DNA of 61,806 nucleotides, the filler included, from Desulfonatronovibrionaceae bacterium (GTDB lineage Bacteria; Desulfobacterota; Desulfovibrionia; Desulfovibrionales; Desulfonatronovibrionaceae), in the NCBI GenBank assembly GCA_046539845.1. It is 3 parts of 3 records of this genome, joined end to end, with 100 filler letters (N's around TTAATTAATTAA, not from the genome) between each part and the next. Parts side by side here need not be neighbours in the genome. Positions count along the whole stretch, not along the records: positions 42,812 to 61,806 come from JBKHGE010000038.1; 2 more parts are not named here. One strand, written 5' to 3'. Positions 22,725-58,114 of the stretch are shown here, piece by piece. The notes below the pieces were generated by a model. That model was not told the origin of the DNA, made no database searches, and saw nothing but the letters and a program-made list of their open reading frames with translations. The position numbers were made by a program, and so were the translations under genes. How positions within the stretch are numbered: the stretch's first letter is position 1; each line of letters starts with the position of its first letter.

Positions 22725-22824
22725 NNNNNNNNNNNNNNNNNNNNNNNNNNNNNNNNNNNNNNNNNNNNTTAATTAATTAANNNNNNNNNNNNNNNNNNNN
22801 NNNNNNNNNNNNNNNNNNNNNNNN
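22725..22824. other. Artificial contig linker / assembly gap
   Basis: N-run containing TTAATTAATTAA (stops in all six frames). Confidence 0.97.
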
Positions 22825-41436: not shown

Positions 41437-41766
41437 ATGACGTCACCTGACAATCCACTTCAATGCATTTATTCTTGTGTCCGGTCCAGAAATTTATTTT
41501 GGATTTATCACGTCAATATGCGACTTCGACAGAGATCAATACCTCGCTCTTGGATCTTGGAATCTGTTGAGAACTATACCTTGATTGAGTGTTACCCTGA
41601 GGATAAGTATTTGCCCAGCTACTTAGTGTGGTCAAAATACAACAATGAAGTGTTTCATATTCTTTTCGGGGTAGATATAGAAGAGCAAAATGTACGTGTA
41701 ATCACGGCTTATAGGCCTGATCCTTATGAATGGGTTAACAATTTCAAAGAAAGGCGTAGCAAATGA
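41437..41766 (+). CDS. DUF4258-like protein, putative toxin
   Basis: HVNMRLRQRSI, IECYPEDKYLPSYL and VITAYRPD..W. Low GC. Confidence 0.8.
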   Translation: MTSPDNPLQCIYSCVRSRNLFWIYHVNMRLRQRSIPRSWILESVENYTLIECYPEDKYLPSYLVWSKYNNEVFHILFGVDIEEQNVRVITAYRPDPYEWVNNFKERRSK

Positions 41767-41984
41767 AATGTCGTTTATGTGGCGGAAACATGGAGAGTAT
41801 TCGGACTGATCTTCCTTTTAAGCTTGAAGACCAGCGAATTATTGTGGTCAAGGATACCCCCGTGGAGCAGTGTTTTTCCTGCGGTGAATACGAACTGTCA
41901 GATACTGTCATGGAAAAACTGGAGATGCTTTTCGATTCCATGGATGAATCTTCCGAGCTTGAAGTAAGACGGTATGCCGCATAG
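41763..41984 (+). CDS. YgiT/MqsA-type zinc finger protein, putative antitoxin
   Basis: MKCRLCGG..VKDTPVEQCFSCGE, with an ATGA overlap with the upstream gene. Confidence 0.85.
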   Translation: MKCRLCGGNMESIRTDLPFKLEDQRIIVVKDTPVEQCFSCGEYELSDTVMEKLEMLFDSMDESSELEVRRYAA

Positions 41985-42121
41985 TTTAAGCACATCACCG
42001 ATTCTATAACCCGTCATATACGAATCCTTATGTAAGAGGCAGGCAAAAGGTGAGATGGACAGGGTTTTTGTTGTTTTGCTTCCTTCGGAATTGGAAAATC
42101 CCCGGGGTTCATATAAGTTGG

Positions 42122-42711
42122 TCAAGCCACCTGCTGGCAGGCAGAATTTCCTGACACCTGTTCTTTATATTTCCGCCGGTTGGCCTTACGGCTGGCCCGT
42201 GCACGGGCCAGCTTGCGGTCCCGAGCGACACAAATTTCTTTCTCACGCCCCAAGAGTTTGTCCTGTGGCGTAATATAGCCAATACTCGCATGCAAGCGCC
42301 GGGTATTATAGTAATCAATGAATTTTTGAACAGTCTGTTTGGCCTCTTCCAGGGAAAGAGGAGTTTTCGGACGGATACAGTTCCGTTTCAAAGTCCCATA
42401 AAAACGTTCTTTTTTGCCGTTGCTTTGCGGGTAGTAAGATGATGTCGTAACATGGGTCATGCCCAGATTCCTGATTAGCTCTTTAAAATCCTTGGCAATG
42501 AACTGTGGCCCGTTATCCGATATAATCCGGGGGCTTTCCTCGGGGTATTTTTCTTTTGCTCTTTGGACAACTATGGCAGCATCCATTTCCGTCATGCTTT
42601 CCCGGAGATCCCAATGCACGAGATACCGGCTGTAGCCATCCAGAAGGCTGATCAAATAATAGAAAGTGCCCTTTATATTGATGTACGAGATATCGATATG
42701 CCAGTGCTGAT
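42122..42711 (-). mobile_element. IS3-family transposase, C-terminal integrase core (cut by the gap)
   Basis: WHIDISY, LDGYSR, ISDNGPQF, PQSNGKKER, YNTRRLHASIGY. Confidence 0.88.
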
Positions 42712-42811
42712 NNNNNNNNNNNNNNNNNNNNNNNNNNNNNNNNNNNNNNNNNNNNTTAATTAATTAANNNNNNNNNNNNNNNNNNNNNNNNNNNNNNNNN
42801 NNNNNNNNNNN
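42712..42811. other. Artificial contig linker / assembly gap
   Basis: N-run containing TTAATTAATTAA. Confidence 0.97.
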
Positions 42812-42837
42812 TACCTAGCCCCGGAGCATTGCAAAGG

Positions 42838-43275
42838 CTATTCTAAATTCTCGGCGTCGGCCAGGTCCTGTGTGCGGCCTGTAGCCCGTTTATTCCGTTT
42901 TAAATTTTCCAGATCGATAAAATTCACTTTAACGCCTTGAATTCTGATTTCGACTCTTTTTTTGTAGCAATCCCGAAACGTTATTTCCTTTAACGTCGTC
43001 AAGAGATCGATCCTGTTCGGAGGGTAACCAAGCTGAATAACCTGATTCTTTTCCAGAAAATCCTCCTTCTTGAGCCCGACCGATTCAAAGCCGAATTCTT
43101 CAAGTGCCTTTACAGCATTATCGGCATTATCCGGTGAAAGCTCAATCCATATATCCAGGTCCTTGGTGTAGCGCGGGTATCCATGAAACGCCACGGCATA
43201 TCCGCCTACCAGCAGATACCTGACATTATGCTTGTTTAACGATTCGATAAACTCTTTGAAATCCCTGTTCAGCAT
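42838..43275 (-). CDS. Nucleotidyltransferase-family protein
   Basis: LLVGGYAVAFHG.PRYTKDLDIW and KRATGRTQDLAD. Confidence 0.85.
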   Translation of the reverse strand: MLNRDFKEFIESLNKHNVRYLLVGGYAVAFHGYPRYTKDLDIWIELSPDNADNAVKALEEFGFESVGLKKEDFLEKNQVIQLGYPPNRIDLLTTLKEITFRDCYKKRVEIRIQGVKVNFIDLENLKRNKRATGRTQDLADAENLE

Positions 43276-43414
43276 TATATCTCCAGGAGTTGTATTCTTC
43301 CCGTATTTTTTCCAGAGCTTCCAGACGTTCTTCATATGATTTCGACCGCCAAAAGGCGAGATCGTCCGGCTGCTCATCCAATTTATATTTTTTTATGGTT
43401 TTGCTTATAGCCAT
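43226..43414 (-). CDS. Small partner protein overlapping the nucleotidyltransferase
   Basis: DLAFWRSKSYEERLEALEKIR..QRVYRIVK. Confidence 0.7.
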   Translation of the reverse strand: MAISKTIKKYKLDEQPDDLAFWRSKSYEERLEALEKIREEYNSWRYNAEQGFQRVYRIVKQA

Positions 43415-43778: not shown

Positions 43779-44990
43779 ATGGCCGCAGAAAAAAGAAAAG
43801 TCCTTATCACCGGAGCGGGGTGCATCTGCAACGCAGGGCCGGATGTCCCCTCGTGCACAGCCGCCCTTTACTCCGGGGATTTTCCCCGACCGGCCCCACC
43901 GGATGATTTCATGCCCGGGTTTGAGCAGGATTTCCCGGTCTTTGCCTGCAAAAAGTATCTACACGCTCATTACCGGGACGAAAAAAACGTGTTTATCAGT
44001 TCCTCCTTTGCCCTGCAGGCCGCCCTGGAAGCCCTGCGAAACGCCGGGGTGGACCCCGGGGAACTTAGCCGGAGCCGCACCGGGATATGCATGGGGACCA
44101 CGGTGGGGGCCTCTCTTAACATCCTTGATTTCTACAAAGCCTGGAAAGAGGGCGGGCATCCGGATCTGGAACAGATATACCGCTACATGCGCAGCAATCC
44201 CGCCCTTTTTCTGCAGGAGAAATTCGGATTATCCGGACCAGTGCAAACAACCACCAACGCCTGCTCCAGCGGCACGGACGCCATCGGCATCGGTATGCAG
44301 TGGATAAGACAGGGGATCTGCGACCGAGTGATCGCCGGGGGGACGGATGAACTGAACGAACTGGCCTATAACGGTTTCATCCGGCTCATGAACTGCAGCA
44401 ATGAACCCTGCCGGCCTTTTGACAAAGAGCGCAAGGGCCTCAATCTCGGCGAAGGCGCGGGGATACTCATTCTGGAATCCGAAAAAAGCGCCGAAAAACG
44501 CGGAGCCGGTATCCTTGGAGAGGTCGCCGGGTACTCGAGCGCAGCGGACGCCCATCACCTGACCGCTCCTCACCCGGAGGCCAGGGGACTGGAGATCGCC
44601 TTTTCCCGAGCGCTTAAGCAGGCCGGAATAGGACCAAAAGACATCGGGGTAATCAATGTGCACGGTACGGGCACCAGGGCCAACGACCAGGCCGAGGCCA
44701 GCCTCCTCTCCAGGTTCCCGGAGCAGGTTCCGTTTTTCGGGTCCAAGGGCATGACCGGACATACGCTCGGCGCGGCCGGAGGAATGGAAGCCATATTCAC
44801 CCTGTACTGCCTGCGGGAAAAGAGAATCCCTTTTACGGCGGGTTTCAGCACCCCGGACCCGGAACTCGGAGTCGCTCCGGCCAAGGGAGAGACAGAGCTA
44901 TCCAGCCCCTGGGCGGTTTCCCAGTCCCTGGCCTTTGGAGGGAACAATTCGGTCCTTGTCCTCAAGGGGGAAGAACAGCCATGCACATAG
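43779..44990 (+). CDS. Beta-ketoacyl-ACP synthase (aryl-polyene-type KS)
   Basis: Cys-His-His triad NACSSG / NVHGTGT / TGHTLG, plus LNLGEGAG. Confidence 0.92.
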   Translation: MAAEKRKVLITGAGCICNAGPDVPSCTAALYSGDFPRPAPPDDFMPGFEQDFPVFACKKYLHAHYRDEKNVFISSSFALQAALEALRNAGVDPGELSRSRTGICMGTTVGASLNILDFYKAWKEGGHPDLEQIYRYMRSNPALFLQEKFGLSGPVQTTTNACSSGTDAIGIGMQWIRQGICDRVIAGGTDELNELAYNGFIRLMNCSNEPCRPFDKERKGLNLGEGAGILILESEKSAEKRGAGILGEVAGYSSAADAHHLTAPHPEARGLEIAFSRALKQAGIGPKDIGVINVHGTGTRANDQAEASLLSRFPEQVPFFGSKGMTGHTLGAAGGMEAIFTLYCLREKRIPFTAGFSTPDPELGVAPAKGETELSSPWAVSQSLAFGGNNSVLVLKGEEQPCT

Positions 44991-45841
44991 TCGGCAAAGG
45001 GATAACCGGACCTTTTGGAGGCTGGCCGGAATTTAAAGATATTGTCCGGGCGGGAAAACCCCTTTTCAGTACCGAAAAAAAACACGCTGACAATCGGGAT
45101 CTGGATCGTTTTGTCTCTACCCGGTTCAAGCGCCGCCTGGATAATTTCACCAGAATGATCCTTACGGCCGCACACCTGGCCCTGGAGGACATGAAGCAGC
45201 TCCGGGGGGAGGAATCCGGCCGCCTGGGGATCATCCTGACAAGCGGCTACGGTCCGTGCCAGACGACTTTCGACTTCCTGGACGGGATGATCGATCACGG
45301 CCCGAATCTGGCCTCTCCACTGGCTTTCTCCCACTCCGTGCACAATGTCCCGGCCGGGGTCCTGGCCATGTCCCTGGGGGAAAACTGCCCGTGCACAAGC
45401 ATCTGCCAGCCGCAGATGCCGGTATTCTCCGGCCTTTTACAGGCGAAGACCTGGCTGGAGGAGGGGATCGCGGATACTGTTTTGCTCGGAGCCGCGGATG
45501 AGGATACCGAGCTTTTGCGCTACTGCCTAAGACGCATGCATCCGGATCTTTCAGACGACAACACCTTGGTCCAGGAAGGAGCGGTCTTTTTTTGTCTCCA
45601 GCAATCAGTCGGGTCCCAGGCGCAGGCGGAACTGACTCTCGCCGCCCCGGGGGAAAGGAATCCGGCTGAATTTCCGGGCACAAATCTTTCCGGGATGCAT
45701 CCCTCCTTCCCTATCCGGGCCGCGTTCTGCGCGGCCGGGTTTCTGGCCGGTAAACAGTCCGGTCCGGTGCTTGTCGCAGAAAAGGACAGACGGGGGGTCA
45801 AGGCTTGCCTACGCATCGAACGGGTCTTGAGCCATGCATAA
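44981..45841 (+). CDS. Chain-length-factor-like inactive KS subunit
   Basis: RRLDNFTRM and ASPLAFSHSVHN. Short and lacking the catalytic triad. Confidence 0.82.
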   Translation: MHIVGKGITGPFGGWPEFKDIVRAGKPLFSTEKKHADNRDLDRFVSTRFKRRLDNFTRMILTAAHLALEDMKQLRGEESGRLGIILTSGYGPCQTTFDFLDGMIDHGPNLASPLAFSHSVHNVPAGVLAMSLGENCPCTSICQPQMPVFSGLLQAKTWLEEGIADTVLLGAADEDTELLRYCLRRMHPDLSDDNTLVQEGAVFFCLQQSVGSQAQAELTLAAPGERNPAEFPGTNLSGMHPSFPIRAAFCAAGFLAGKQSGPVLVAEKDRRGVKACLRIERVLSHA

Positions 45842-46994
45842 ATACAGCCTGGAACACGCGGATATATCCCTTATCTTAAGCGGAATGCTCAAGGCGGCCT
45901 GCATTGCCCGGGGGGAGTACCCGGACCAGGTCTTCATTCCGGGCCCGCTGAATCCGGACACCCAGATCAAAGCGGAGCCAGAAGTGGCCGCCCGGGCCCG
46001 AGCGATGTTCGGCTGCCCGGAAACCCTGCCCGAGGAGGGTACAATCGGGATCTGGACGGACATTTTGCATCGCGGTCGACTCAAAAGCGGTGCAGACAAC
46101 ATCGTGTTCTTCACCTCGGGCAGCACGGGTGAGCCCCGGCCTAACACGCATGATCTGGCCCTTCTGGCCCAGGAGATTGACTGCCAGGCCGCTTTGTACC
46201 CGGGGGCAAAACGGATCATAAGCTTTGTCTTTCCCCAGCACATCTATGGCTTTTTGTTTACCATAATGCTCCCCAAGGCCCTGGGCTGTCCGGTATATTC
46301 CTGCCCGCCCTTTCCCGCTGCCCGGGTGCTGCAGGATATTGGGCCGAACGACCTGGTGGTCGGCTTTCCCCTCTTCTGGGACAAGCTCTTAAATACGCAC
46401 CCCCCCCTGCCCCCGGGGATACGGGGTGTGACCTCGACCGCGCCCTGTCCCCGGGAGACGATCTACAACCTGCTTGCATTCGGGTTTGAAAAGATCACTG
46501 AGATCTACGGATCCTCGGAAACCGGGGGTATCGGCACCCGGGATCACCCGGAATCCCCCTACAGCCTGCTTTCCTGCTGGAGACGTGTTGACCAGGACAC
46601 ACTGGCCCGCATCCACCCCGGGAGCGGGAAGGAGTTGCTCTACTCCATGCCGGACGAGGTAAGCTGGTTGGATGCGCAGACCTTTGTCCCCGGGGGGAGG
46701 AAAGATAATGCGGTTCAGGTGGCCGGGATTAATGTATATCCGAAGCGGGTAAAAGATATCTTGCTTGCTCATCCGGAGGTCGTAGACTGCGCGGTTCGGC
46801 CCATGCGCCCGGAAGAGGGCTCGAGGCTCAAGGCGTTCATAGTCCCGGCCGAAGAAGAAATTGAGGAGACTGAAATGCGGCGCAGGCTCGCGGCTTGGAT
46901 GAAAAAAAAATTGAGCGCCCCGGAAGTACCGCGTAAAATAGATTTCGGAGCTGAGCTGCCCAAAGATCCCATGGGCAAGATCCGGGATTGGTAA
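45834..46994 (+). CDS. AMP-dependent ligase (aryl-acid activating type)
   Basis: FTSGSTGEPR, HIYG, YGSSETGG, GRKD..VQVAGINVYP and PMGK. Confidence 0.85.
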   Translation: MHKYSLEHADISLILSGMLKAACIARGEYPDQVFIPGPLNPDTQIKAEPEVAARARAMFGCPETLPEEGTIGIWTDILHRGRLKSGADNIVFFTSGSTGEPRPNTHDLALLAQEIDCQAALYPGAKRIISFVFPQHIYGFLFTIMLPKALGCPVYSCPPFPAARVLQDIGPNDLVVGFPLFWDKLLNTHPPLPPGIRGVTSTAPCPRETIYNLLAFGFEKITEIYGSSETGGIGTRDHPESPYSLLSCWRRVDQDTLARIHPGSGKELLYSMPDEVSWLDAQTFVPGGRKDNAVQVAGINVYPKRVKDILLAHPEVVDCAVRPMRPEEGSRLKAFIVPAEEEIEETEMRRRLAAWMKKKLSAPEVPRKIDFGAELPKDPMGKIRDW

Positions 46995-47196
46995 CCAACC
47001 GAATTTGCTAGCACCTTTCCAAACGCCGCTGATTTTTCAGGTAGCTATTTTGAACAATCCCCTACGATCTTATGAAGCCCGTGGAAAAGAAATAAACTCC
47101 ATTTCCCGTACTTCGACAGCTTTTATGGATGTTTTATCTCTTCCAAGAGCTTTGCTAATATGTTCAAAGAGAAAACCCCAAAAAAGGAGGGTAAAG

Positions 47197-47400
47197 ATGT
47201 TTAAGGATAAAACTTTGCTTTGTGTGGCAGTACTCGGTTTGCTCTTTTTCCCCCTTGTGTCCTGCACCCAGGTGAAGGAGGCCGGTCACGGGGTGGGCAA
47301 GGCCACCGGAAAGTCGGTAAAGACAATGAAGGAAATGCCCCGGGAGCTGAAGGAGGGGTATAAAGAGGGCAGGACCGAAGATCCCGCCCCCGAGGAATAA
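47197..47400 (+). CDS. Small lipoprotein
   Basis: LVSC lipobox and an AAGGAGG RBS. Confidence 0.7.
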   Translation: MFKDKTLLCVAVLGLLFFPLVSCTQVKEAGHGVGKATGKSVKTMKEMPRELKEGYKEGRTEDPAPEE

Positions 47401-47409
47401 AAAGACAGG

Positions 47410-47817
47410 TTATTGATTTATCTTTGCCCGCATGCGCTCCATAATCGCCTGGTCCAGATGGCGTATCCATCCGTTATAACGCTTGTGGATCACGTTCCCG
47501 GAATGGCGCAGGTTGCGGCTGTCCTTGTATTTGATGCTGTAACTGTTGTTATCGTAGGATATATCCACCTTGGCCATGAGCTTGCCGTGGTGCAAAGTGG
47601 CCACTATATGCCCCGGGGCCTCATCCTCGGGACTCCAGCCCTTGTCCACACACCCGCTGCGCACGGCCTCGGCCACATCCTCGGTGGTCAGGTTATCCCC
47701 GGACTTGGTTGGAATGGGGTCCTTATCCACATTCTGGATCGGTTCCTCGACTATGCACGCGGTCAAAAAGACCACCGCAACCACGGCCACAAACCAAGCG
47801 CAAAATCTGGGATTCAT
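47410..47817 (-). CDS. Lipoprotein
   Basis: LTAC lipobox and YSIKYKDSRNL..IHKRYNGWI. Confidence 0.8.
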   Translation of the reverse strand: MNPRFCAWFVAVVAVVFLTACIVEEPIQNVDKDPIPTKSGDNLTTEDVAEAVRSGCVDKGWSPEDEAPGHIVATLHHGKLMAKVDISYDNNSYSIKYKDSRNLRHSGNVIHKRYNGWIRHLDQAIMERMRAKINQ

Positions 47818-47833
47818 AAAAACCTCCTATTTT

Positions 47834-48595
47834 TTACGATGCTTCCAGGCAGGAGAGCATCTTCTTTTTTACATGCCCGGCCATGGCCCGGGCCGGTTTT
47901 TTGTCCCCGGCAAAGTCCCGCGGATGGACCGGATCCAGAAAATGCATGCCCACCCGGGCCGGGGAGAAAAGCCTCTTTCCCGGGGGGAGCAGTTTCCCGG
48001 TTCCGGTAATGCACAGCGGGAGCACCGGGACATCGGTGCGCTGGGAAATCTGAAAGGCCCCGGTCTTGAAACCGCCCAGAACCCCTTTTTTCTTTCGGGT
48101 CCCTTCCGGGAAGAAAAGAAGGCTTATCCCCTGGTCCAAAAGCCCCCTGGCCCGGACGAGAAACGTCTCCGGATCCAAGTCCGCGTCCAGATATCCGGAC
48201 ATGCGCATGAACGGAGCCAGAAATGGGACCCGAAAAGGCCAGCCCCGGACCACCATGGAGATGGACCATACCGGTTGCGCCCCGAAACTGTATATATCCA
48301 CAATGGACTGATGATTGGCCACAAAAATATACGGCGGGGAAGAAAGCTTGTCCAGGCCGGTGCGCTTAAAACCCAGAAGCGGCTTTGCCGCCGCATACCA
48401 GCCCCGGCCGTAAAGCCAGATGAGATACAGGCCCAGCTTCATCCCCTTTTCCCGGGAAAGAACCTGGCCCGCAGCCAAAACCAAGGGCAGGATAATCATG
48501 GACAAAAGGACCAAAATACCCTTTATCAGATAAAGCCAGACATTAAAGACAAATTTTAAAAACGGATTGTCCCCGGCGGTATTTGCTTCGACCAT
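47834..48595 (-). CDS. PlsC-like lysophospholipid acyltransferase
   Basis: NHQSIVD, FFPEGTR and FKTGAF. Confidence 0.92.
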   Translation of the reverse strand: MVEANTAGDNPFLKFVFNVWLYLIKGILVLLSMIILPLVLAAGQVLSREKGMKLGLYLIWLYGRGWYAAAKPLLGFKRTGLDKLSSPPYIFVANHQSIVDIYSFGAQPVWSISMVVRGWPFRVPFLAPFMRMSGYLDADLDPETFLVRARGLLDQGISLLFFPEGTRKKKGVLGGFKTGAFQISQRTDVPVLPLCITGTGKLLPPGKRLFSPARVGMHFLDPVHPRDFAGDKKPARAMAGHVKKKMLSCLEAS

Positions 48596-48600
48596 CTCCC

Positions 48601-48870
48601 CTATTCCGGAGCCTCCTGCTTGAATTCTTCGTATTTTTTAAGGATATATTCGTGCAGATCCCCAACAGTGCGGATTTCTTTTAGATCTTCCTTGTTCTTC
48701 AGCTTAAAGCCGAAGGCCTGTTCCAGGGCGACGACCATATCCACATAATCCAGGCTGTCCAGTTCCAGGTCGTCGATAAAGCTCGCCTCTGGCCTGAGCT
48801 CCTCCCGGTCCAGCTCAAACTCCTCGGCCAGGGAGGAATCAATGGTCTCCAAAATTTCCGAACGATTCAT
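48601..48870 (-). CDS. Acyl carrier protein
   Basis: DLELDSLD phosphopantetheine site. Confidence 0.93.
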   Translation of the reverse strand: MNRSEILETIDSSLAEEFELDREELRPEASFIDDLELDSLDYVDMVVALEQAFGFKLKNKEDLKEIRTVGDLHEYILKKYEEFKQEAPE

Positions 48871-50099
48871 GAAGCGTATCTCCTGATCAAAAGGGCGGTG
48901 TTTATGCCCCCGAAAGCAAAGTTATTCTTTAATACCGCATGCACATCTTTTGTGCAATCCTCATGTATATGGCTGATTCCGGTACAGTCCGGATCAACAT
49001 TTTCCAGATTCCTGGTCCGCACAAGCACTCCCTCGCTCATCATTTTGACCACCGCGGCTGTCTCCAGGGCGCCGCTGGCGGCCATGGTGTGCCCCAGATG
49101 TCCCTTGAGGCTGCTCACCGGCACGCCTTTCCCGAATATCCGGGCCAGGACCGCGGCCTCGTCCGCGTCGCCCTGAATGGTGGAGGTGGCGTGGGCGTTT
49201 ATATAGTCAATATCCCCGGGGTTTGCTCCGGCGCTTTTTAGGGCGGACAGGATGCATTCGCGCATTGTCCGCGGATCCGGGCTGACCAGGTCCTTGGCGC
49301 AGTTCATGGACCATCCGGCGATTTCCCCCAGAATGGGGACCCCGCGCTCCAGGGCGGACTCAAGGGACTCCAGGAGCAAAACCCCGCCTCCCTCGGAGCA
49401 GACAACCCCGTCCCGGTCCGCGTCAAAAGGACGGGAGGCGAGCCCGGGATCATCCCAGCTTTTGACCGAAGCCGCATCCATCATGTCAAAGGTGCCCACA
49501 GTAAGGGGATGGACCTCGTCCGCCCCGCCGCAAAGCATCACATCCTGCCTGCCCGCGGCAATGGCCTCGGCCCCGAGGGCTATGGCCTGTCCTCCGGTGG
49601 CGCAGGCAGCGCCCGGGGAGATGACCCGGCCGCTTATGCCCAGGTACTGGGCCACATTGGCCGCGCAGCTGTGATTCATTATCTTGAAGAAACTGGTGGA
49701 GCGGATCTGCTCCACGCCGGTACCGTTCACAAGGTACTTGCAAAAAACATCCTCCAGGACATAGGGGCTGTTCACCGTGCTGGACATGCTCACTCCGGTC
49801 CGGCCTCCGGCCAGGTATTTATCCTCCAGCCCGGCCATGTGCACCGCTTCCCGGGCGGCAAAGGCAGCGAATAGACTCATCCCGGACATACTCCGGCGAT
49901 AGCGGCGGGGAATTTCCTTTTCCGGGAGATGGGGCACGCGACCGGATATCCTGCTGCCCAGTCCGGGTACATCTTTAAGCTCCGGATTATATTCAATCCG
50001 GCTTTCACCTTGTCTCAACCCGGACCAAAACGGTTCCAGGCCCCGCCCATAGGCGGAGATAGCCCCCATGCCGGTAATTACAACTCTTTGCACTTGCAC
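48867..50099 (-). CDS. Beta-ketoacyl-ACP synthase
   Basis: AACATG / NAHATST / LGHTMA triad, plus NNFAFGG. Confidence 0.93.
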   Translation of the reverse strand: MQVQRVVITGMGAISAYGRGLEPFWSGLRQGESRIEYNPELKDVPGLGSRISGRVPHLPEKEIPRRYRRSMSGMSLFAAFAAREAVHMAGLEDKYLAGGRTGVSMSSTVNSPYVLEDVFCKYLVNGTGVEQIRSTSFFKIMNHSCAANVAQYLGISGRVISPGAACATGGQAIALGAEAIAAGRQDVMLCGGADEVHPLTVGTFDMMDAASVKSWDDPGLASRPFDADRDGVVCSEGGGVLLLESLESALERGVPILGEIAGWSMNCAKDLVSPDPRTMRECILSALKSAGANPGDIDYINAHATSTIQGDADEAAVLARIFGKGVPVSSLKGHLGHTMAASGALETAAVVKMMSEGVLVRTRNLENVDPDCTGISHIHEDCTKDVHAVLKNNFAFGGINTALLIRRYAS

Positions 50100-51580
50100 C
50101 TCACTACCTGTTCCAGGAGCTTATTTTCGCCCACTATCATCCCGCAGGCCACCATTCCGGAAATAACCGCGCCCAGGACTCCCGGGGCGACAACCCCCTG
50201 CCCGGCCAGAAAAAGACCCGGGATCTTGGTCATGGGCAAAAGCGGGTATTGATCCACGCTCTTTTGCGTACCGTACAGGCCGCCGCACGGAGTGCCACAG
50301 TAATCACGGAATGTAAGCGGAGTGGACGCCGCCACCGGCTCCAGCCTGCCTTTAAGCTCGGGAAGCTCCCGGGAGACGGTCTTAAGGAGTTTGTCCGTGA
50401 GTCTGCTTTTAAAGTCCCTGTACTCCGCGGGCCGCCTCCCGGACGTTGTATTCGCCCATTGCTCAAACCCGGAAAAAGAGGACGGGGCAATGATTATCAC
50501 CCCGGCTTCCCCGTTTTCCTCTTCGCTCAGGCTCAAATGCAGACCGTTGGGACCGTCTTCCTTTTCCACCCCCACAAAACGCAGCCACCCTTTATCCCTT
50601 AAAACCAGCCAGTTGGGGGTATTCAGGATCCCTTTATCCGAGCCCTTAAGGCGGGCATAAACCACGAATCCGGACATGGTCTCCCGCATCCCGGCGAATC
50701 TATGCTGCTGGGCCAGCCGCAAACCCCGACCGGCCAGAAGCTTGGGGATAAGGGCCGGGCTGCCGGTATATATGCAGGCTGATGTGCGTAGTTTTCGGCC
50801 GTCTGCCAAATGCACGGAGTTCACCCGTTTTGATTCGTCCAGTTCCAGGTGCGCGGCCCGGCTGCTTAAAAATACGTCCACCCCGTTGCTTTCAAGGCTG
50901 CGGGAAAAGGCCCGGACAAGCTCCGTCCCTCCGCCGCGGATATGATGCACTGAGCGCAGATAAGAGCCGAAAATCTGGGCATGTACCTGCAGGGTGGCCA
51001 CACCCGGCTCCACCCCGGCCAGGATGGCCGGGTAGGAAAAAATCGTACGCAGTCCGGGATCAGGGACATTTTTCCGCAGAAAGCCTTGCACGCTTATATT
51101 CTGCCGAATATATGATTCTAGGCTGTTCTTTTCCGTTTCCCTGAAGGTCAGATACGGGGAGGAAGACCAATAATTCCGGCACTCCCGGAAAAAGGCCCGC
51201 ACTTCACTCTCATGGCCGGGACGAAGCCGGAAAAGATCGTGCTTCAGCCGTTTTTGACCGTAGGAAACAAAAAAATCCTGGCCAATATCCGGACTGCGCA
51301 GCCCGAGAAAGCCTTCAACCGGGAGCTCCCTCTCCTGCAGATCCTGTCTTATACCCAGAAACCTAAAATAGGTATCCAGGACATGTCCCTGACCCAGCTC
51401 GCCCAGGTAGTGCACCCCGGTATCAAAAAAAAGCCCCTTTCTTTTGAACCCGCGCAAGGTGGGGGCCAGATGCGAAGAGGCCTCGACAAGGGCCGCCTTG
51501 TACCCCATTTTGGCCAGGGCGATAGCCGCACTCATCCCGGATGCACCGCCGCCGATGACAACGCAATCATAAACAGACAT
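50078..51580 (-). CDS. Phytoene-desaturase-like (CrtI-type) FAD oxidoreductase
   Basis: MSVYDCVVIGGGASG Rossmann motif, FDTGVHY, STPLT and LFLAGQ. Confidence 0.88.
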   Translation of the reverse strand: MSVYDCVVIGGGASGMSAAIALAKMGYKAALVEASSHLAPTLRGFKRKGLFFDTGVHYLGELGQGHVLDTYFRFLGIRQDLQERELPVEGFLGLRSPDIGQDFFVSYGQKRLKHDLFRLRPGHESEVRAFFRECRNYWSSSPYLTFRETEKNSLESYIRQNISVQGFLRKNVPDPGLRTIFSYPAILAGVEPGVATLQVHAQIFGSYLRSVHHIRGGGTELVRAFSRSLESNGVDVFLSSRAAHLELDESKRVNSVHLADGRKLRTSACIYTGSPALIPKLLAGRGLRLAQQHRFAGMRETMSGFVVYARLKGSDKGILNTPNWLVLRDKGWLRFVGVEKEDGPNGLHLSLSEEENGEAGVIIIAPSSFSGFEQWANTTSGRRPAEYRDFKSRLTDKLLKTVSRELPELKGRLEPVAASTPLTFRDYCGTPCGGLYGTQKSVDQYPLLPMTKIPGLFLAGQGVVAPGVLGAVISGMVACGMIVGENKLLEQVVRCKCKEL

Positions 51581-52794
51581 CAGAACTCCAGGACCAGGGC
51601 GCAGTTGGTTCCGCCGAACCCGGAGGAATTGCACATCACTTTCCCCGGCTTTTCCCTGACGGTTTCCCGGACTATATTCAGATCCCGGGCGGCCGGATCC
51701 AAAGTGGATAAATTCGTGTTCGGGGCGATAAATCCGCCCGCGGCCATGAGGCAGGAATAGACCACCTGGGAGGCTCCGGCCATCCACAGTTCATGCCCGG
51801 TCATGGACTTGAGCGAGGATATCCTGGGGCTGCAGCCGGCAAAGACCTCTTTTATGTTCTGTGCCTCGGCCGAGTCCCCGCTGGGGGTTGCCGTGGCATG
51901 AGCGCATATGTAGTCGATTTCTTCCGGGGTGTATGCGGCATTTTCAAGGGCCGCGCGCATGGCCCGGGCCAGGCCGGTGGGACTGGGAACGGAAAGCAGA
52001 TAACCGTCCGAGGAGAAACCATACCCCCGAACTTCCCCGATTATATTCGCTCCTCTTTTAAGGGCCTCCTCCCGCTCTTCAAGCACCAAAGCGGCCGCTC
52101 CCCCGCTGGGGACCAGACCGTCCCGGTCCGCGTCAAACGGGCGGCTGGCCTTTTCCGGCTCCCGCGTCTGCCTGGAAAAGGCGCCCAATCCGTCAAAACT
52201 GCACATGGACTCCCAGTTAATCTCCTGCGCCCCGCCGCAGATAACCCTTTTCTGCCGGCCCAGGGAGATGAGGTCAAAGGCCTGACCCACTGCGTTTCCC
52301 CCGCTGGAACAGGCGGAACTCAAGGTCCAGCAGGCGCCCTTGGTCCCCAGGATGACATTCAGATTCATGGTCACTGTGGAGTTCATGGACCGGAAGATGG
52401 CTCCGCTGCCGATGGAGCCAGTACTGCCGCGCTCGCGCAGAAGATCGGCCTGCCTGACGCTGGCCCGGCAGGAGGAATCCACGCCAAAGATAAGGCCGGT
52501 ATGATCATTTTGTACATCCCCGGATCCCAGACCGGATTCCTGCAAGGCCTCGGACACGGCCGCATAGGCCTGAACCCCGAACTCGGGCAGGGTCTTTCTC
52601 TGTTTCCGGCCCAGGTATTGGGGGGGATCAAAATCCGGGATAAGTCCGGTAAGCGGGCTGAAAAACCCCATCCTCTCCCGCTCCGGATCGATCCCGATCC
52701 CGGAACGGCCGTTATACAGGGAGTCGGCCACGGCCTGATTCCCGATCCCAATGCAGGAGACGATTCCCGTCCCGGTTATTACTACCCGCTTCAT
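51580..52794 (-). CDS. Beta-ketoacyl-ACP synthase with an atypical GHELW motif
   Basis: SACSSG / CAHATAT / TGHELWMAG. Confidence 0.93.
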   Translation of the reverse strand: MKRVVITGTGIVSCIGIGNQAVADSLYNGRSGIGIDPERERMGFFSPLTGLIPDFDPPQYLGRKQRKTLPEFGVQAYAAVSEALQESGLGSGDVQNDHTGLIFGVDSSCRASVRQADLLRERGSTGSIGSGAIFRSMNSTVTMNLNVILGTKGACWTLSSACSSGGNAVGQAFDLISLGRQKRVICGGAQEINWESMCSFDGLGAFSRQTREPEKASRPFDADRDGLVPSGGAAALVLEEREEALKRGANIIGEVRGYGFSSDGYLLSVPSPTGLARAMRAALENAAYTPEEIDYICAHATATPSGDSAEAQNIKEVFAGCSPRISSLKSMTGHELWMAGASQVVYSCLMAAGGFIAPNTNLSTLDPAARDLNIVRETVREKPGKVMCNSSGFGGTNCALVLEF

Positions 52795-52861
52795 GATTTA
52801 TGATCACTTCTTGCTGTATTTGTCTAAAAAGAGCTTTGTCCGCAATTTTAAAAAATCTATT

Positions 52862-52900
52862 AACCGCCCGTCCGGCACTCAGGGACTCTGAGTGCCGGAC
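52862..52900. repeat. Palindromic dispersed repeat, related to 6082-6128
   Basis: gtccggcactcag-ggact-ctgagtgccggac perfect stem. Confidence 0.65.
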
Positions 52901-53047
52901 AAACTTTTTTATGACCGGGTTTCACGGGTGTATTTTAATAGCGGCATTACCCAAAAAACGGGCATTTAAAACAGCCGCTGCAAATCAAACGCTTTTTTAG
53001 TACTGATGCCGGGATATGAAAGACCTTAAAAATAGATCCGTCTCAAG

Positions 53048-53324
53048 AATCTGTGCAAAGCATTTTATATTTTTGCTGAATCAAGATACTGGATTACCCG
53101 GTCAAGCCGGGTAATGACGAATGGGGGATAGCCCGTATTTCTAGGTCTGAACCAAATTGTTCGGAATCTCCACCCTCGTCATCCGGCACTCAAATCTAAA
53201 ATTTGAGTGCCGGATCCAGGAAACGACAATAATTTGTCAACTCGAGATATTTTATTAAAAGCCTTTAAATTCAGTTGGTCCAGTATCTTTTGCGGGACTT
53301 TAAAAACAAAATTTTGCACAGATT
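53048..53324. repeat. Nested inverted-repeat (MITE/REPIN-like) element
   Basis: Outer IR aatctgtgcaaa/tttgcacagatt, inner IR aagatactgga/tccagtatctt, and two opposed GTCAT..ATCCAG hairpins. Confidence 0.65.
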
Positions 53325-53348
53325 TGTGTGAGGAGCCTAAAAATAAAA

Positions 53349-54077
53349 TCAGGTATGCACTCCGCCGTTTACGGAAATGACTTCCCCGGTGATATACCCG
53401 GCCCGCCTGGAACACAGAAAGGAAACCACCCCGGCCACTTCCTCCGGATCACCGAAGCGGCCGATAGGTATCTGTTTTAGTATCTCCTCCCGGGGCAGGC
53501 CCTCCAGCATCCCGGTGTCTATAAACCCCGGGGCCACGGCATTGACCAGGATATTGCGCTTGGCCACTTCCACGGCCAGGGAGCGCGTGGCCCCGATAAG
53601 CCCGGATTTGGCCGCGGAATAGTTCACCTGCCCGGGGACCCCGGTCTGCCCGGATGTGGAGGCGATATTCACTATCCGCCCCCTTTTCTTGCGCAGCATC
53701 TTCTCCAGAACCGGCTTGGTCACATTGTAAAAACCATCCAGGTGAACGCGCAAGACATCCCCCCAGTCGTTCTCCTTCATCCATACCAGAAGGGTATCCC
53801 GGTTGAAACCGGCATTATTGACCACTGCATAGGGGACTGTTTCCTTGAGTTTAGGGAAAAGCGCATCTTCGGTCTCCTGCCTGTCGGCCACGTCAAAGGG
53901 CAAAAGCTCGCAGCTGCGGCCCATATCCCTTATATCCGCGGCCACCTTTTCCGCCTCATCCGCGCCGCTTCTGTAGTTCAGCCAGATATCAAAGCCGTCT
54001 TCGGCCAGCATCCTGGCTGTTGCCGCGCCTATGCCCTTGCTCCCGCCGGTTACCAGGACAACTTCTGTGTCGGCCAT
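53349..54077 (-). CDS. fabG: 3-oxoacyl-ACP reductase
   Basis: TGGSKGIG, NNAG, YSAAK and NAVAPGFIDT. Confidence 0.93.
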   Translation of the reverse strand: MADTEVVLVTGGSKGIGAATARMLAEDGFDIWLNYRSGADEAEKVAADIRDMGRSCELLPFDVADRQETEDALFPKLKETVPYAVVNNAGFNRDTLLVWMKENDWGDVLRVHLDGFYNVTKPVLEKMLRKKRGRIVNIASTSGQTGVPGQVNYSAAKSGLIGATRSLAVEVAKRNILVNAVAPGFIDTGMLEGLPREEILKQIPIGRFGDPEEVAGVVSFLCSRRAGYITGEVISVNGGVHT

Positions 54078-54230
54078 AAAAAACCCAACCCTTAATACTT
54101 GTGCGTTATATCCTAAGCAATTAAAATAAACATATCCATGACTTCATCATTTCCAAGGACATTACTTTAGATGACAACTGCGTATAATACGGGTATGCTA
54201 TTTAGTCAAAATTTAAAGACGAGCGGAAAT

Positions 54231-55505
54231 ATGAAACTAAAACTTATTTATCCCAGCTGGCCCAAGCTGCGGGGGCAGACCAAGTTCAATCTCCCCCCGC
54301 ACGGTCCGGTGGTTATGGCCGCGACAATCCCCGAGGACGTGGAAATTGAATTCATTGACGACAACGTCCAGACCCTCGGCTTCGAACCTGACGCCGATCT
54401 GGTGGCTCTTTCGGTCATGCTTACCTGTCAGCTGCCCCGGGCCTTTGAAATAGCCGATCGATTCAGGTCCATGGGCATGCCGGTCATTTTCGGGGGCATA
54501 TCCGCAACCCTGCACCGGGATGAAGTCGCCGGGCACGCGGACAGCATCTTTCTGGGCGAGGCCGAAGGAAGATTCGCCGCGGTTATTGACGACTTCAAAA
54601 AAGGGCGGCTGAAAAAAGTCTACGACTACACCAACAACCACCCGGATATTTCCCTGGTGGACACGGCCCGGCGGGACATTCTGGATCGCGAGCTGTACAA
54701 CTACCGCGGGGTGCAGATGGTGGATCTGGTGCACGCCTCCCGGGGTTGCCGCTTCAATTGCTTTCCCTGCTGCTCCCGTTACCTGGGCGGCAAGAGGCAC
54801 CGCACCCGCCCCATATCCAAGGTAGTCCAGGAAATGGAGTCCATACCCAACAACCGGCTCTTTCTGGTGGACAATTCCCTGGCCCAGAACAAGAAATGGC
54901 TGCGGGAGCTGTTCTCGGCCATACAGCCGCTGAAGAAAAAATGGATCTCCCATCCGGTGTTCTATGATCCGGCAATAATCGACATGGCCGCAAAAGCCGG
55001 ATGCTGGTATGTGTATCAGGCGATTATCGACACCTCGGAAAAGACCAGGGAACGGATCAAGATGCTCCAGGACCACGGGATCGGCATAGAGGGGACCATC
55101 CTCCTGGGCACTGACGACCACGACGAATCCTTTATAAAAAGGCTTGTGGACTTCCTGCTGGAAAACGAACTGGATCTGGCCGAGTTCACCATACTTACTC
55201 CGTTCATGCACACCCCCATCCGCAGACAGTTCGAGGAGGAAGGACGCATACTTTCCAACGACTGGATAAAATACACCACGGACCAGGTGGTTTTCCAGCC
55301 GGCGAAAATGACCCCGGAAAAACTGCATGAACTCTACGACTATGCCTGGGAAGCCTTTTACGGCAAGGGAGGGCAGCAGCTGAAAATGGCCCGACTGTTC
55401 CGCAAGGTCATAGAAAAGGAAAAAAAGGACGGCACTTACCGCCGCTATGAACTTGATGGCAAAAAAGCAGACCCGATCGAGAGCTCGCCTGCGGCGCAGA
55501 AATAA
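54231..55505 (+). CDS. B12-binding radical SAM protein
   Basis: KLIYPSW, GEAEG, SRGCRFNCFPC and ILTPF..TP. Confidence 0.9.
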   Translation: MKLKLIYPSWPKLRGQTKFNLPPHGPVVMAATIPEDVEIEFIDDNVQTLGFEPDADLVALSVMLTCQLPRAFEIADRFRSMGMPVIFGGISATLHRDEVAGHADSIFLGEAEGRFAAVIDDFKKGRLKKVYDYTNNHPDISLVDTARRDILDRELYNYRGVQMVDLVHASRGCRFNCFPCCSRYLGGKRHRTRPISKVVQEMESIPNNRLFLVDNSLAQNKKWLRELFSAIQPLKKKWISHPVFYDPAIIDMAAKAGCWYVYQAIIDTSEKTRERIKMLQDHGIGIEGTILLGTDDHDESFIKRLVDFLLENELDLAEFTILTPFMHTPIRRQFEEEGRILSNDWIKYTTDQVVFQPAKMTPEKLHELYDYAWEAFYGKGGQQLKMARLFRKVIEKEKKDGTYRRYELDGKKADPIESSPAAQK

Positions 55506-55510
55506 ATATC

Positions 55511-57859
55511 ATGATGGACAATAACCGAATCCTTTTCATCCATCCTTTGGGCTACGAGTCGGTGTACGCGGAAGCAGACATCGCCAGACAGGCCAATCTC
55601 ATGCCTCCGCTGGGGCTGGCCAGCATGTCCGCCTATCTGGAGGAAAAGAAAATTACCTCGGACATCCTGGATTGTTTCGCCCACCCGGACTGCTTCCAGA
55701 AAATCAGAGACTACCTGCAGACCTACAAGCCGGGGTTCATCGGCTTTACCTGCACCACTTCCGGGTTTCCGGACGCAGCGCACATCGCGGAAATGGCCAA
55801 GCAGGAAACTCCGGGGATCAAAACGGTTATCGGCGGGGCGCACCCTTCGGCCCTGAAGGAAAAATCAATGCTCGACAGCCCGGCTATCGACTTTGCCGTG
55901 GTAGGCGAAGGGGAAAGGCCGATCGAGCAGTTGGTCCTTTCCGGGGGGCGGGACGTCGGGGATATCCCGGGCATCTGCCACCGGGAAAACGGTGATCCAA
56001 AATTCAACGGCGGGCAAAAACAACTTGTAAACCTGGACGAACTCCCCTTCCCCGCCTACGAGAAGCTGCACGGATTTCCGGAAACCTATACCCTACCCAT
56101 TTTCAATTATCCGCGGCGGCCAAACACCAGCTGCATCTCCAGCCGGGGATGTCCCTACAAATGCTCCTATTGCGACCGCTCCGTATTCGGCTCCAGTTTC
56201 CGGTACAATTCCGCTAATTATCTCTATGAACACATGCGCTACCTGCGCGACCGCTTTGGGATCAGGCACATAAATTTCTATGACGACCAGTTCACCCTGC
56301 ATCGCGGCCGGGTGGCCGAGCTTTGCACCATGCTCACGGACTCGCCCCTGGACATGACCTTTAATTGCGCGGCCCGGGCCGAGCATGTGGACCCGGAGCT
56401 TCTGAAGATGATGAAGGAGGCCGGGTGCTGGATGATAAGCTTAGGCATAGAAAACGGCAATCAAAAGCTCCTTTCCCGGCACAGGCAAAATGCGGATCTG
56501 GACATGGTCGCGGCAAAAGTCAGGGACATAAAAAAGGCCAGGATCCGGATAAAGGGGCTTTTCATGCTCGGCCTGCCCGGGGAGACGGAAAAATCCATCC
56601 AGGACACACGCGATTATGCCCGTTCCCTTAACCTGGACGATCTGAACCTGGCCAAATTCACTCCTTTCCCCGGCTCGCCCGTGTATGAAAATATCCGGGA
56701 ATTCGGCAGTTTTGACGAGGATTTTTCCCGCATGGACTGCATGCACTTCCTGTTCATCCCCGAAGGCCTCACCGAAGACTTTCTGGAGGAAAAATTCCAG
56801 GAATTTTACAAGGACCACTTCACCCGGCCCCGGACCCTGTTCAATTACCTGTCCATGCTCTGGAAATCCCCGGACAGCTGGAAACGCTTTTTATTGTCCC
56901 TGCCTAATTTTCTGAAATTCGCCTTTAAGGGCAGCCGCATAGATGAATCCAGCCGAAACCCGAACCGCAAATGGGACAGCAAAAGCCTGGGCAGCGACTG
57001 GCAGCACAGGTTTTTCTACATGCTCATCCGCCGCTTTGGGGTGGGTCCGGCCTATGTTTTTTTGCATGTGGTAACCCTGTGGTACGTGCTCCTTTATCCA
57101 GGTGTAAGGCAAAGAATCCGGCCGTTTTTACGCCACAGGTTCCCCAAACGGACCAATTTTTTCCCGCAAATAACGGATATCTACCGTTTGAGCCTGAGTT
57201 TCGGGAAAATACTGATTGACCGGGCCGCAATCGGCATCCTGGGAACGGAAAAATTCAAGATGGATTTTCCGGAACAGGAGGAGTTCAAAAAAATCATCCA
57301 GGAAGGCAGCGGTGCGGTGCTCATAAACTCCCACGCCGGGTCCTGGCAGGTAACCATAGCCGAGCTGGAGTGGCTGGACATCCCGGTGTCCATGCTCATG
57401 CAAAGGGATCAACAGGATGTGGACCGCCCCTATTTCGTGCATCAGAAAAAAAAGAGCCCGTACAAAGCCATCTCCCCGGAAAAAGGGCCGCAGGCCATGC
57501 TGGAGATGATGAGCGCCCTTAAAAACGGCGGGATCGTCGGAGTTATGGGGGACAGGGCGTTCGGGAACGACAAAAACGTGGTGGATGTGGATTTTATGGG
57601 CGACAAGGCCTGGCTGCCCTACAGCCCGTACAAGCTGGCCTCGGCCACGGGAGCGCCGTGTCTTGTCCTTCTCACGCACAAGTCCGGGCACATGAGCTAC
57701 ACAGTTCGGCTGGCCGGGGTAATCCGGGTCCCGGAAAATCTCGGCCGCGGCCCGGAAGATTTCCGCGCATACGCCCAGCAGTACGCAAACGCCCTGGAAC
57801 AGTTCGCCATGGAACACCCCTGGCAATTCTTCAATTTCTACGACATGTGGGAGAAATAA
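55511..57859 (+). CDS. B12-binding radical SAM protein fused to an LpxL-like acyltransferase
   Basis: N-terminal part: PPLGLAS, GEGE, SRGCPYKCSYC. C-terminal part: SHAGSWQ, MGDR, PWQFFNFYDMW. Confidence 0.88.
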   Translation: MMDNNRILFIHPLGYESVYAEADIARQANLMPPLGLASMSAYLEEKKITSDILDCFAHPDCFQKIRDYLQTYKPGFIGFTCTTSGFPDAAHIAEMAKQETPGIKTVIGGAHPSALKEKSMLDSPAIDFAVVGEGERPIEQLVLSGGRDVGDIPGICHRENGDPKFNGGQKQLVNLDELPFPAYEKLHGFPETYTLPIFNYPRRPNTSCISSRGCPYKCSYCDRSVFGSSFRYNSANYLYEHMRYLRDRFGIRHINFYDDQFTLHRGRVAELCTMLTDSPLDMTFNCAARAEHVDPELLKMMKEAGCWMISLGIENGNQKLLSRHRQNADLDMVAAKVRDIKKARIRIKGLFMLGLPGETEKSIQDTRDYARSLNLDDLNLAKFTPFPGSPVYENIREFGSFDEDFSRMDCMHFLFIPEGLTEDFLEEKFQEFYKDHFTRPRTLFNYLSMLWKSPDSWKRFLLSLPNFLKFAFKGSRIDESSRNPNRKWDSKSLGSDWQHRFFYMLIRRFGVGPAYVFLHVVTLWYVLLYPGVRQRIRPFLRHRFPKRTNFFPQITDIYRLSLSFGKILIDRAAIGILGTEKFKMDFPEQEEFKKIIQEGSGAVLINSHAGSWQVTIAELEWLDIPVSMLMQRDQQDVDRPYFVHQKKKSPYKAISPEKGPQAMLEMMSALKNGGIVGVMGDRAFGNDKNVVDVDFMGDKAWLPYSPYKLASATGAPCLVLLTHKSGHMSYTVRLAGVIRVPENLGRGPEDFRAYAQQYANALEQFAMEHPWQFFNFYDMWEK

Positions 57860-58114
57860 ATGGATCTAAAAACTCAGCTGAAAGAAAAACTCATCGAGGG
57901 ACTCAACCTGGAAGACGTCCGGGCCGAGGATATAAAGGACGACGAGCCCCTTTTCGGGGAAGGCCTGGGCCTGGATTCCCTGGATGCGGTGGAGCTGGTG
58001 GTCATTGTCCAGAAAAACTTCGGGGTGGAAATTACCGATATGGAACAGGGCCGGGACGCCTTCGCCTCAATAAACGCCCTGGCTGATTTTATAGAAAAAA
58101 ACCGAAACAGCTAG
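57860..58114 (+). CDS. Acyl carrier protein (aryl-polyene-type)
   Basis: PLFGEGLGLDSLDAVEL and FASINALADFI. Confidence 0.92.
   Translation: MDLKTQLKEKLIEGLNLEDVRAEDIKDDEPLFGEGLGLDSLDAVELVVIVQKNFGVEITDMEQGRDAFASINALADFIEKNRNS

Follow-up and report, generated by a model that had tools for sequence, protein, structure and literature searches.

A probable aryl-polyene-type lipid pathway with apparently optional radical SAM enzymes, divided between two contigs of a Desulfonatronovibrionaceae bacterium

Introduction

A gene cluster of an uncultured Desulfonatronovibrionaceae bacterium (GenBank assembly GCA_046539845.1, here G000, 98.9% complete) combines ketosynthases (KS), acyl carrier proteins (ACPs) and acyltransferases (ATs) with radical S-adenosylmethionine (SAM) enzymes (rSAMs) that depend on cobalamin, and raises the question of which lipid such a set of enzymes would make. 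The window, that is, the whole stretch of 61,806 nucleotides that was analysed, consists of three contigs (C36, C37 and C38) separated by spacers at 22725-22824 and 42712-42811, which are N runs around the linker TTAATTAATTAA; gene neighbourhoods spanning these spacers are artificial. The cluster (43779-58114) is confined to C38. The initial annotation had proposed that two acyl chains are built on separate ACPs, methylated or cyclised by the radical enzymes and attached to a lipid scaffold, and had pointed to the candidate ladderane clusters of anammox bacteria. Taken together with a second cluster-bearing contig of the same genome (C62), the window is here read as probably an anaerobe version of the aryl-polyene lipid (APEL) pathway, the predicted product being a pigment-like aryl-polyene-type glycolipid with optional radical methylation.

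Results and Discussion

Gene content of the cluster

All the genes named by the initial annotation are present between 43779 and 58114 with open frames, and the motifs of the KS, rSAM, acyltransferase, ligase and reductase proteins are all intact. Two amendments had to be made to that list: the second rSAM (rSAM2) and the LpxL-like acyltransferase, given as two genes, encode one protein, and an ApeA-like lipoprotein and a gene for 67 aa had been overlooked. The cluster comprises the following genes, with the chain-length-factor-like subunit abbreviated as CLF and with G003 and G007 being related genomes.

43779-44990 (+): KS1, ApeO-like partner of the CLF (Pfam ketoacyl-synt; 32% to ApeO; catalytic motifs)
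44981-45841 (+): CLF-like subunit, ApeC-type (PF13723, a family including ApeC)
45834-46994 (+): adenylating starter ligase, near the photoactive yellow protein (PYP)-type 4-coumarate-CoA ligase family, ApeH analogue (TIGR02372 266.8 bits, cut-off 334.7; 25% to ApeH)
47197-47400 (+): small conserved 67-aa protein with a lipoprotein-like N-terminus (AGGAGG upstream; homologues 61% in G003 and 30% in the G007 cluster; no Pfam match)
47410-47817 (-): ApeA-like lipoprotein (34% to E. coli ApeA, E 1e-18)
47834-48595 (-): PlsC/ApeD-like acyltransferase (PF01553; HxxxxD motif; 31% to ApeD over 127 aa)
48601-48870 (-): ACP1, ApeF-like (PF00550; best match ApeF, 40%)
48867-50099 (-): KS2, ApeR orthologue (39% to ApeR; ApeR clade 100/98; Phe137 at the aryl-stacking Tyr site)
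50078-51580 (-): CrtI-like FAD oxidoreductase (PF01593; TIGR02734 97.9 bits, far under the cut-off)
51580-52794 (-): KS3, FabB-like cluster ketosynthase (PRK07967 372 bits, under the cut-off; sister to E. coli FabB, 100/98)
53349-54077 (-): FabG, ApeQ/FlxB-like ketoreductase (47% to ApeQ; top NCBIfam match FlxB, 309 bits, cut-off 340)
54231-55505 (+): rSAM1, atypical B12-binding radical SAM with CxxxCxPCC (B12-binding Pfam 31.9 bits, just below the cut-off; no Radical_SAM Pfam match)
55511-57859 (+): rSAM2 (B12 radical SAM, residues 1-480) fused to an LpxL/ApeJ-type acyltransferase (three Pfam domains, one open reading frame)
57860-58114 (+): ACP2, GLGLDS type, ApeE-like (NF006617 over the cut-off; 42% to ApeE)

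The three KSs are intact, as had been annotated, with the catalytic Cys and first His motifs reading TNACSSG/VHGTGT in KS1, GAACATG/AHATST in KS2 and SSACSSG/AHATAT in KS3; the second His motif is matched in KS1 and KS2 and reads KSMTGHELW in KS3. In a 49-row tree KS2 falls with ApeR and KS3 with E. coli FabB (100/98 each), KS1 joins ApeO weakly (85/44), and none of them groups with the housekeeping FabFs or with the anammox-type Cluster I KS. The expected separation from housekeeping enzymes thus holds with respect to FabF and fails with respect to FabB, since KS3 lies in the E. coli FabB clade although it is located inside the cluster. Housekeeping fatty-acid synthesis could be ruled out as the role of the cluster, because a separate plsX-fabH-fabG-acpP-fabF operon is found on contig C6 and its FabF groups apart from the window KSs. 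The assignment to a specialised lipid pathway was borne out by these placements and by the strong synteny of the rSAM genes. A plasmid search using KS1 returned distant KSs only, and no connection could be made between 9s5h, the top PDB match of KS1, and the anammox preprint. The closest solved relative of the CrtI-like protein is the phytoene dehydrogenase 4dgk. A promoter scan of 52700-54300 gave nothing exceeding shuffled sequence.

Comparison with the aryl-polyene pathway

The 18 Ape proteins of E. coli CFT073 were used as a reference and compared with the G000 proteins. Fourteen have direct matches (ApeA, D, E, F, H, I, J, K, L, M, O, P, Q and R), ApeN was matched indirectly through the DUF3261 protein of a relative, and the CLF shares PF13723 with ApeC and adjoins KS1. 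Of the ape core of Grammbitter et al., the following are present: the ApeO/ApeR KS pair (KS1 being the best match of ApeO, with weak tree support), the two carriers ApeE and ApeF, ApeQ in the window, and ApeI, ApeP and ApeM on C62. Each ACP pairs with its own counterpart, ACP2 with ApeE (42%) and ACP1 with ApeF (40%).

No dehydratase, thioesterase, glycosyltransferase (GT) or exporter was found within the window. A search of G000 placed on C62 a SPASM-type rSAM (rSAM4), ApeP, LolA, MMPL, an ApeN-like protein, ApeI, a thioesterase, a third B12-rSAM (rSAM3) and a GT; because most of the remaining genes sit together there, the window represents half of a pathway. In relatives the genes form a single operon, in the order FabG, KS3, CrtI-like, KS2, ACP1, PlsC, ligase, SPASM rSAM, ApeP, LolA, MMPL, ApeN, ApeI, thioesterase, KS4, CLF2, rSAM1, rSAM3, rSAM2, GT, AT, ACP2, KS1 and CLF. 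KS4/CLF2 and the FlxY-like ligase of relatives were not found in G000.

The resemblance to the apeA-R cluster, known from E. coli CFT073 and Xenorhabdus doucetiae as the source of aryl-polyene (APE) lipids, extends to two ACPs, KS/CLF plus an ApeR-type KS, a ketoreductase, two dehydratases, an adenylating ligase, ApeD- and ApeJ-type transferases, a thioesterase, the ApeA lipoprotein and the LolA/MMPL/DUF3261 export set. With respect to ape, the present pathway is extended by a CrtI-like flavoprotein, a KS of FabB type and four rSAMs, three of them B12-rSAMs and one of SPASM type; it has no ApeB or ApeG match, is distributed over two contigs, and has ApeJ split, its acyltransferase half being fused to an rSAM. 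In APELs a GalNAc bears the aryl polyene and the sn-2 position is taken by a conjugated acyl chain, and the roles proposed are separate carriers for ApeE and ApeF, sn-2 transfer for ApeD and sugar plus acyl transfer for ApeJ (10.1101/2020.12.19.423268); the ape genetics in the available text of PMC8253772 agree with them. The gene order seen here, with ACP1 adjoining PlsC and ACP2 directly after the acyltransferase domain, fits these carrier and transferase roles. Two chains on two ACPs and a lipid scaffold, as first annotated, is thus the best reading of the cluster, but this design has already been described for aryl-polyene lipids (10.1101/2020.12.19.423268).

By homology to the ape pathway, the ligase would adenylate an aromatic acid, for which a hydroxycinnamate or a hydroxybenzoate is the probable choice, and load it directly onto ACP2, and KS1/CLF, FabG and the ApeI and ApeP dehydratases of C62, with the help of KS2, would extend this starter to a conjugated polyene. 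ACP1 with KS3 and KS2 would build a second, unsaturated chain, whose double bonds the CrtI-like flavoprotein may adjust and which PlsC would place on a lysophospholipid. The C62 GT would add the sugar, onto which the LpxL-like domain would move the ACP2-bound chain, and the MMPL, LolA-like and ApeN-like proteins would export the lipid to the outer membrane.

Starter ligases

The best family of the window ligase is that of the 4-coumarate-CoA ligases (TIGR02372), and its homologues end the ACP2-KS1-CLF run in six of six sampled loci. Among 251 genomes of the order, the five that carry a FlxY-like ligase are also the five that carry KS4, and the window-type ligase is absent from all five; the 12 rSAM1-bearing genomes divide into six that carry the window-type ligase without FlxY/KS4, four that carry FlxY/KS4 and two that carry neither. 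This distribution points to two mutually exclusive starter-ligase modules, first recognised here, both of which appear directed toward a coumarate-like (cinnamate-like) starter, since FlxY is a characterised ligase that activates 4-coumarate (PMC3992019, available text) and 4-coumarate ligases are the closest family of the window enzyme. KS4/CLF2 would take the acyl-CoA from the FlxY-like ligase, and the window ligase would load its ACP directly, by analogy with ApeH as presented in the available text of PMC8253772. A PYP-activating function of the window ligase was ruled out, as no PYP was found and the homologues are located in the cluster. Window-ligase homologues also occur in open frames of ~1340-1380 aa (G010:C2, G028:C16, G035:C1:2805391 and G512:C31), possibly large fusion proteins.

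The flexirubin cluster (flx) of Chitinophaga pinensis shares a FlxB-like reductase, a LolA2-like protein and, among relatives, a FlxY-like ligase; for all three the best-scoring models are flexirubin ones, each under the cut-off. It differs in that no tyrosine ammonia-lyase was found in G000 and that the two loci, to which this search was limited, showed no recognisable dialkylresorcinol genes.

The nature of the starter also bears on an alternative in which the product is a non-aromatic polyene, polyunsaturated lipid or hydrocarbon precursor; the ligase would then load a short aliphatic acid, and double bonds would be introduced by the flavoprotein and the rSAMs. Such an idea was proposed for Desulfotalea in the available text of Rattray et al. 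(PMC2649909), where polyunsaturated hydrocarbons are described from D. psychrophila, and it gains from the finding of no ammonia-lyase in G000 and from KS3 and the CrtI-like gene having no E. coli ape counterpart. The same text gives no genetic tie of those hydrocarbons to the cluster, the families of both alternative ligases include enzymes that activate coumarate, and KS2 retains an aromatic residue, Phe137, where ApeR has its aryl-stacking Tyr. A non-aromatic product is, on this evidence, unlikely.

Several observations weigh against an aryl-polyene-type glycolipid. The CLF shows no pairwise similarity to ApeC, ApeB and ApeG are unmatched among the G000 proteins, and the grouping of KS1 with the long-branched ApeO is weak (85/44). 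Neither ligase reaches the cut-off of its family, the ligase/KS4 pattern comes from a small number of kindred genera, and KS4 outside the order often occurs without a FlxY-like ligase within 10 kb (33 vs 6 of 36 long loci). Neither an aromatic ammonia-lyase nor a PYP was found in G000, and the source of coumarate is therefore not evident. Finally, rSAM1 deviates from the usual SAM-binding pattern (see below), and "methylase" may be the wrong term for it.

Radical SAM enzymes

The rSAMs look like optional tailoring enzymes of the pathway. Among 41 related genomes KS2 is found in 10 and rSAM1 in nine, both being present in eight. G007 (98% complete) retains the core without rSAM1, rSAM3 and rSAM4 and with no close rSAM2 match, and of six further loci with the window-type ligase, three have no B12-rSAM between thioesterase and GT and three have rSAM3 only. 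The locus of the cultured Halodesulfovibrio spirochaetisodalis (L034) combines the window-type ligase with rSAM1, rSAM3 and rSAM4 and has no rSAM2, and L138 is an example of a version free of rSAMs. As the rSAMs are dispensable in relatives, tailoring fits better than a scaffold-forming cyclisation. An obligate rSAM1-rSAM3 complex is not favoured, each being found without the other. B12-dependent rSAMs are mostly C-methylases, and because of this and of the missing ApeB, methylation is the likeliest role; given the aryl-polyene scaffold, the chances are somewhat better than even that the B12-rSAMs act as C-methylases of the ring or chain and stand in for ApeB. Corrinoid synthesis is likely, since CbiD is present in G000. 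In a number of loci (L069, L072, L074, L075, L079, L080 and others) the SPASM enzyme rSAM4 is fused to the ApeP dehydratase, hinting that rSAM4 may act on an ACP-bound chain.

Both window enzymes carry CxxxCxxC, and the class B architecture (a B12-binding domain followed by the CxxxCxxC barrel) is recognised by Pfam in rSAM2 and by motif and fold in rSAM1, whose structure model (pLDDT 88) has AprD4, MgmA and TsrM as best fold matches. A PDB sequence search with rSAM1 alone gave no match, and an ESM Atlas search returned putative rSAM clusters only. The Pro of CxxxCxPC is present in all 120 rSAM1 homologues examined and the extra Cys after the motif in 116 of them. The GxE(S) motif, in which strand β4 ends, and the helix after it have a role at the SAM ribose. 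After β4, rSAM1 shows A-x-x-D (AIID(TS)) instead of the usual G-x-E-S (rSAM2 has GIEN) and is 14-17 residues shorter than rSAM2 and the anammox-type proteins; this short spacing is seen in 106 of the 120 homologues, 11 being not measurable and three not matched. The change is not decay, because it is family-wide and strongly conserved, and the conserved Asp may substitute for GxE(S). The CxxxCxPCC motif and the deletion by the SAM site would thus define an atypical B12-rSAM family, newly recognised here, which may carry out a non-standard reaction. It is decidedly doubtful, however conceivable, that this family represents a new kind of B12/Fe-S enzyme that is not a methylase and rearranges or cyclises the ACP-bound polyene; if it did, this relative of a Cluster I enzyme would provide a culturable model of radical ring formation on fatty-acyl chains. 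A further B12-binding rSAM with C-terminal TPR repeats lies on C37 (35427-37364, minus strand), unlinked to the cluster.

Relation to candidate ladderane clusters

With TIGR04072, 401 Planctomycetota-level genomes were searched and the regions of four were fetched; the genomes are called anammox-type from gene order alone, which agrees with the published kuste3352-3335 cluster and with Cluster I (available text of PMC4790861 and 10.64898/2026.05.19.726425). PF18582 failed as proof of anammox identity, G041 having 22 copies.

The link drawn by the initial annotation stands insofar as paralogues of type II fatty-acid synthesis, a phytoene-desaturase-like gene and rSAMs are found in synteny (window plus C62, and 80 loci of relatives), but the aryl-polyene link is far stronger. 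The ladderane-type enzyme is not among the window rSAMs, and the counterparts of the anammox-cluster rSAMs are on C62. There, rSAM3 passes TIGR04072, the B12-rSAM model of Rattray-type clusters, with 566 bits (cut-off 360), the window rSAMs scoring 42 and 85 bits and failing it; identities to the matching anammox-type cluster genes are 49% for rSAM4 and 32-34% for rSAM3. For rSAM2 no close anammox-type counterpart was seen (best 35%; cluster-borne relatives 22-24%), and the CrtI-like protein is 22-26% identical to anammox-type PDH-like proteins. rSAM1 is 30% identical over 437 aa to the Cluster I B12-rSAM and, in a tree of 27 rows from which long-branch and redundant rows were left out, shares a 100/100 clade with it and with other anammox-type paralogues; under this narrow sampling the grouping indicates kinship, not orthology.

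The Rattray clusters and the Kuenenia cluster kuste3352-3335, as given in the available text of PMC2649909, have in common with the present genes several KSs, a phytoene-desaturase-like gene, rSAMs, a ligase, a membrane transporter and a GT. They have a phenylacetate-CoA-ligase-like enzyme, of which G000 has no orthologue, where the PYP-type coumarate-ligase-like enzyme is found here, and the present cluster differs further by rSAM2 and its fusion to the acyltransferase. Cluster I (KustE3603-3608, candidate ladderane genes) likewise pairs a KS with a partner that is not catalytic, and it also has a CrtI-like gene and a B12-rSAM distantly related to rSAM1. However, the window KSs lie outside the clade of its amxFabF2-type KS, its partner is a full-length inactive KS homologue of 412 aa in place of a CLF of 286 aa, and its six genes, as far as the source is available, include no lipid-attachment or export genes, unlike this pathway. 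The kuste3352-3335-type cluster itself contains LolA-, MMPL-, GT- and acyltransferase-like genes and may be of the aryl-polyene rather than the ladderane type. Genes for an LpxL-like acyltransferase, a LolA-like protein and a relative of rSAM1 lie upstream of the clusters resembling it (L118 4045-10556; L131 486-7011) and add to this aryl-polyene-like appearance.

These comparisons bear on the proposal of a cyclising role for the rSAMs, which would turn the polyene into a strained-ring membrane lipid with ladderane-like or cyclopropane rings. The TIGR04072 score of rSAM3, the identity of rSAM4 to its anammox-type counterpart and the clade of rSAM1 are in keeping with it. None of the window KSs falls with that of Cluster I, however, and the Cluster I B12-rSAM, to which rSAM1 is just 30% identical, has a normal motif; rSAM-free clusters exist, and rSAM3 is internally deleted in G003. 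Ladderanes were not detected in D. psychrophila (PMC2649909, available text), and the connection between Cluster I and ladderanes is itself without experimental link in the accessible part of 10.64898/2026.05.19.726425. Ladderane-like rings are unlikely, and a strained-ring lipid of either kind has a very small probability.

The rSAM2-acyltransferase fusion

The fusion of rSAM2 with the LpxL-like acyltransferase is a single protein of 782 aa, the acyltransferase half of which is 24% identical to the ApeJ C-terminus. It is not an assembly error, because its frame is also open in G001 (98%) and G003 (71%) and its junction is crossed without gaps by a contig of run X8, from a separate study. The fusion occurs in two of the 80 fetched loci. 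Its value as a strong functional clue was weakened by the other long proteins carrying this acyltransferase domain: of 20 such proteins, two are rSAM2 fusions and 18 are ApeJ-like GT fusions, and rSAM2, GT and AT are arranged consecutively in relatives. Loss of the middle gene (GT) from this row would account for the fusion, which, a new observation here, is probably a lineage-restricted by-product of rearrangement.

Division of the cluster and mobile elements

A C62-type second locus is also present in the three other genomes of the genus. The ends of C62 and C38 show no overlap, and none of the listed contig pieces extended far past the C38 end. Starting from an ancestral rSAM1-rSAM3-rSAM2-GT-AT-ACP2 run, duplication and reciprocal losses would leave rSAM3-GT at one locus and rSAM1-rSAM2-AT-ACP2 at the other, the fusion arising there through removal of the GT.

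A split of this kind could also mean that the cluster is a decaying remnant, no longer making its product in this lineage. Besides the two contigs and the flanking toxin-antitoxin genes, this would fit the absence of KS4/CLF2 from the G000 search, the deletion of residues 28-278 from the TIGR04072 enzyme rSAM3 of G003 with its neighbours intact (L112 1969-2657), and the state of G002 (92% complete), in which only the export/dehydratase half was found (L114 4446-12854) and the KS half was not. Yet the window genes are full length with intact motifs, their order is kept in G003 at 61-85% identity, and other clusters with this ligase type also have no KS4. Decay is accordingly rated very unlikely.

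Small toxin-antitoxin-type pairs (a DUF4258 pair, a nucleotidyltransferase pair and YoeB/YefM) flank both cluster halves and contig ends in the genus (window 41437-43414; L028 93-595; L112 185-753).

Between fabG and KS3, a non-coding element of ~290 bp (53041-53331), which has terminal inverted repeats of 19 nt and contains an inner hairpin, resembles a miniature inverted-repeat transposable element. G003 has a copy with 83% identity at a different position, the element shows very high contig depth in run X4, and a strain in run X8 has 1616 other letters at this position.

Distribution and significance

A scan of genome contigs with rSAM1 gave 265 relatives, of which the best 80 were fetched as loci; uncultured Desulfovibrionales are the nearest relatives that bear a name, with 100% and 84% in rSAM1. 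In 76 of the 80 loci the rSAM1 relative is accompanied by one or more core genes, in line with the synteny anticipated by the initial annotation, and at least eight core genes are present in 33 of the 36 loci of at least 18 kb. A protein search with rSAM1 gave at least 6207 matches among 8000 candidates scored. About 12 of the 80 loci (e.g. L063 1351-6836, L090-L093, L096 and L099) have an extra cassette after KS1/CLF, with a third ACP, a protein of 420-470 aa (no Pfam match in the one scanned) and an FAD oxidoreductase, some also with a B12-rSAM and a ligase.

Clusters of this kind were described in Deltaproteobacteria in 2009, in Desulfotalea, Geobacter and Pelobacter (Rattray et al., available text of PMC2649909), and expression in an anoxic basin is described for "ladderane" clusters of Desulfobacterota (PMC9902471, available text). 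No publication naming a product turned up in a literature search that largely excluded subscription journals. The family is thus widespread and known since 2009, neither rare nor new, and the present copy, from an uncultured genome and a split cluster, adds little besides the fusion and the comparison. The family is common in sulfate reducers, with natural versions that carry zero to four rSAMs and two starter modules, and this series of versions makes the question of the product testable by comparative lipidomics in cultured strains.

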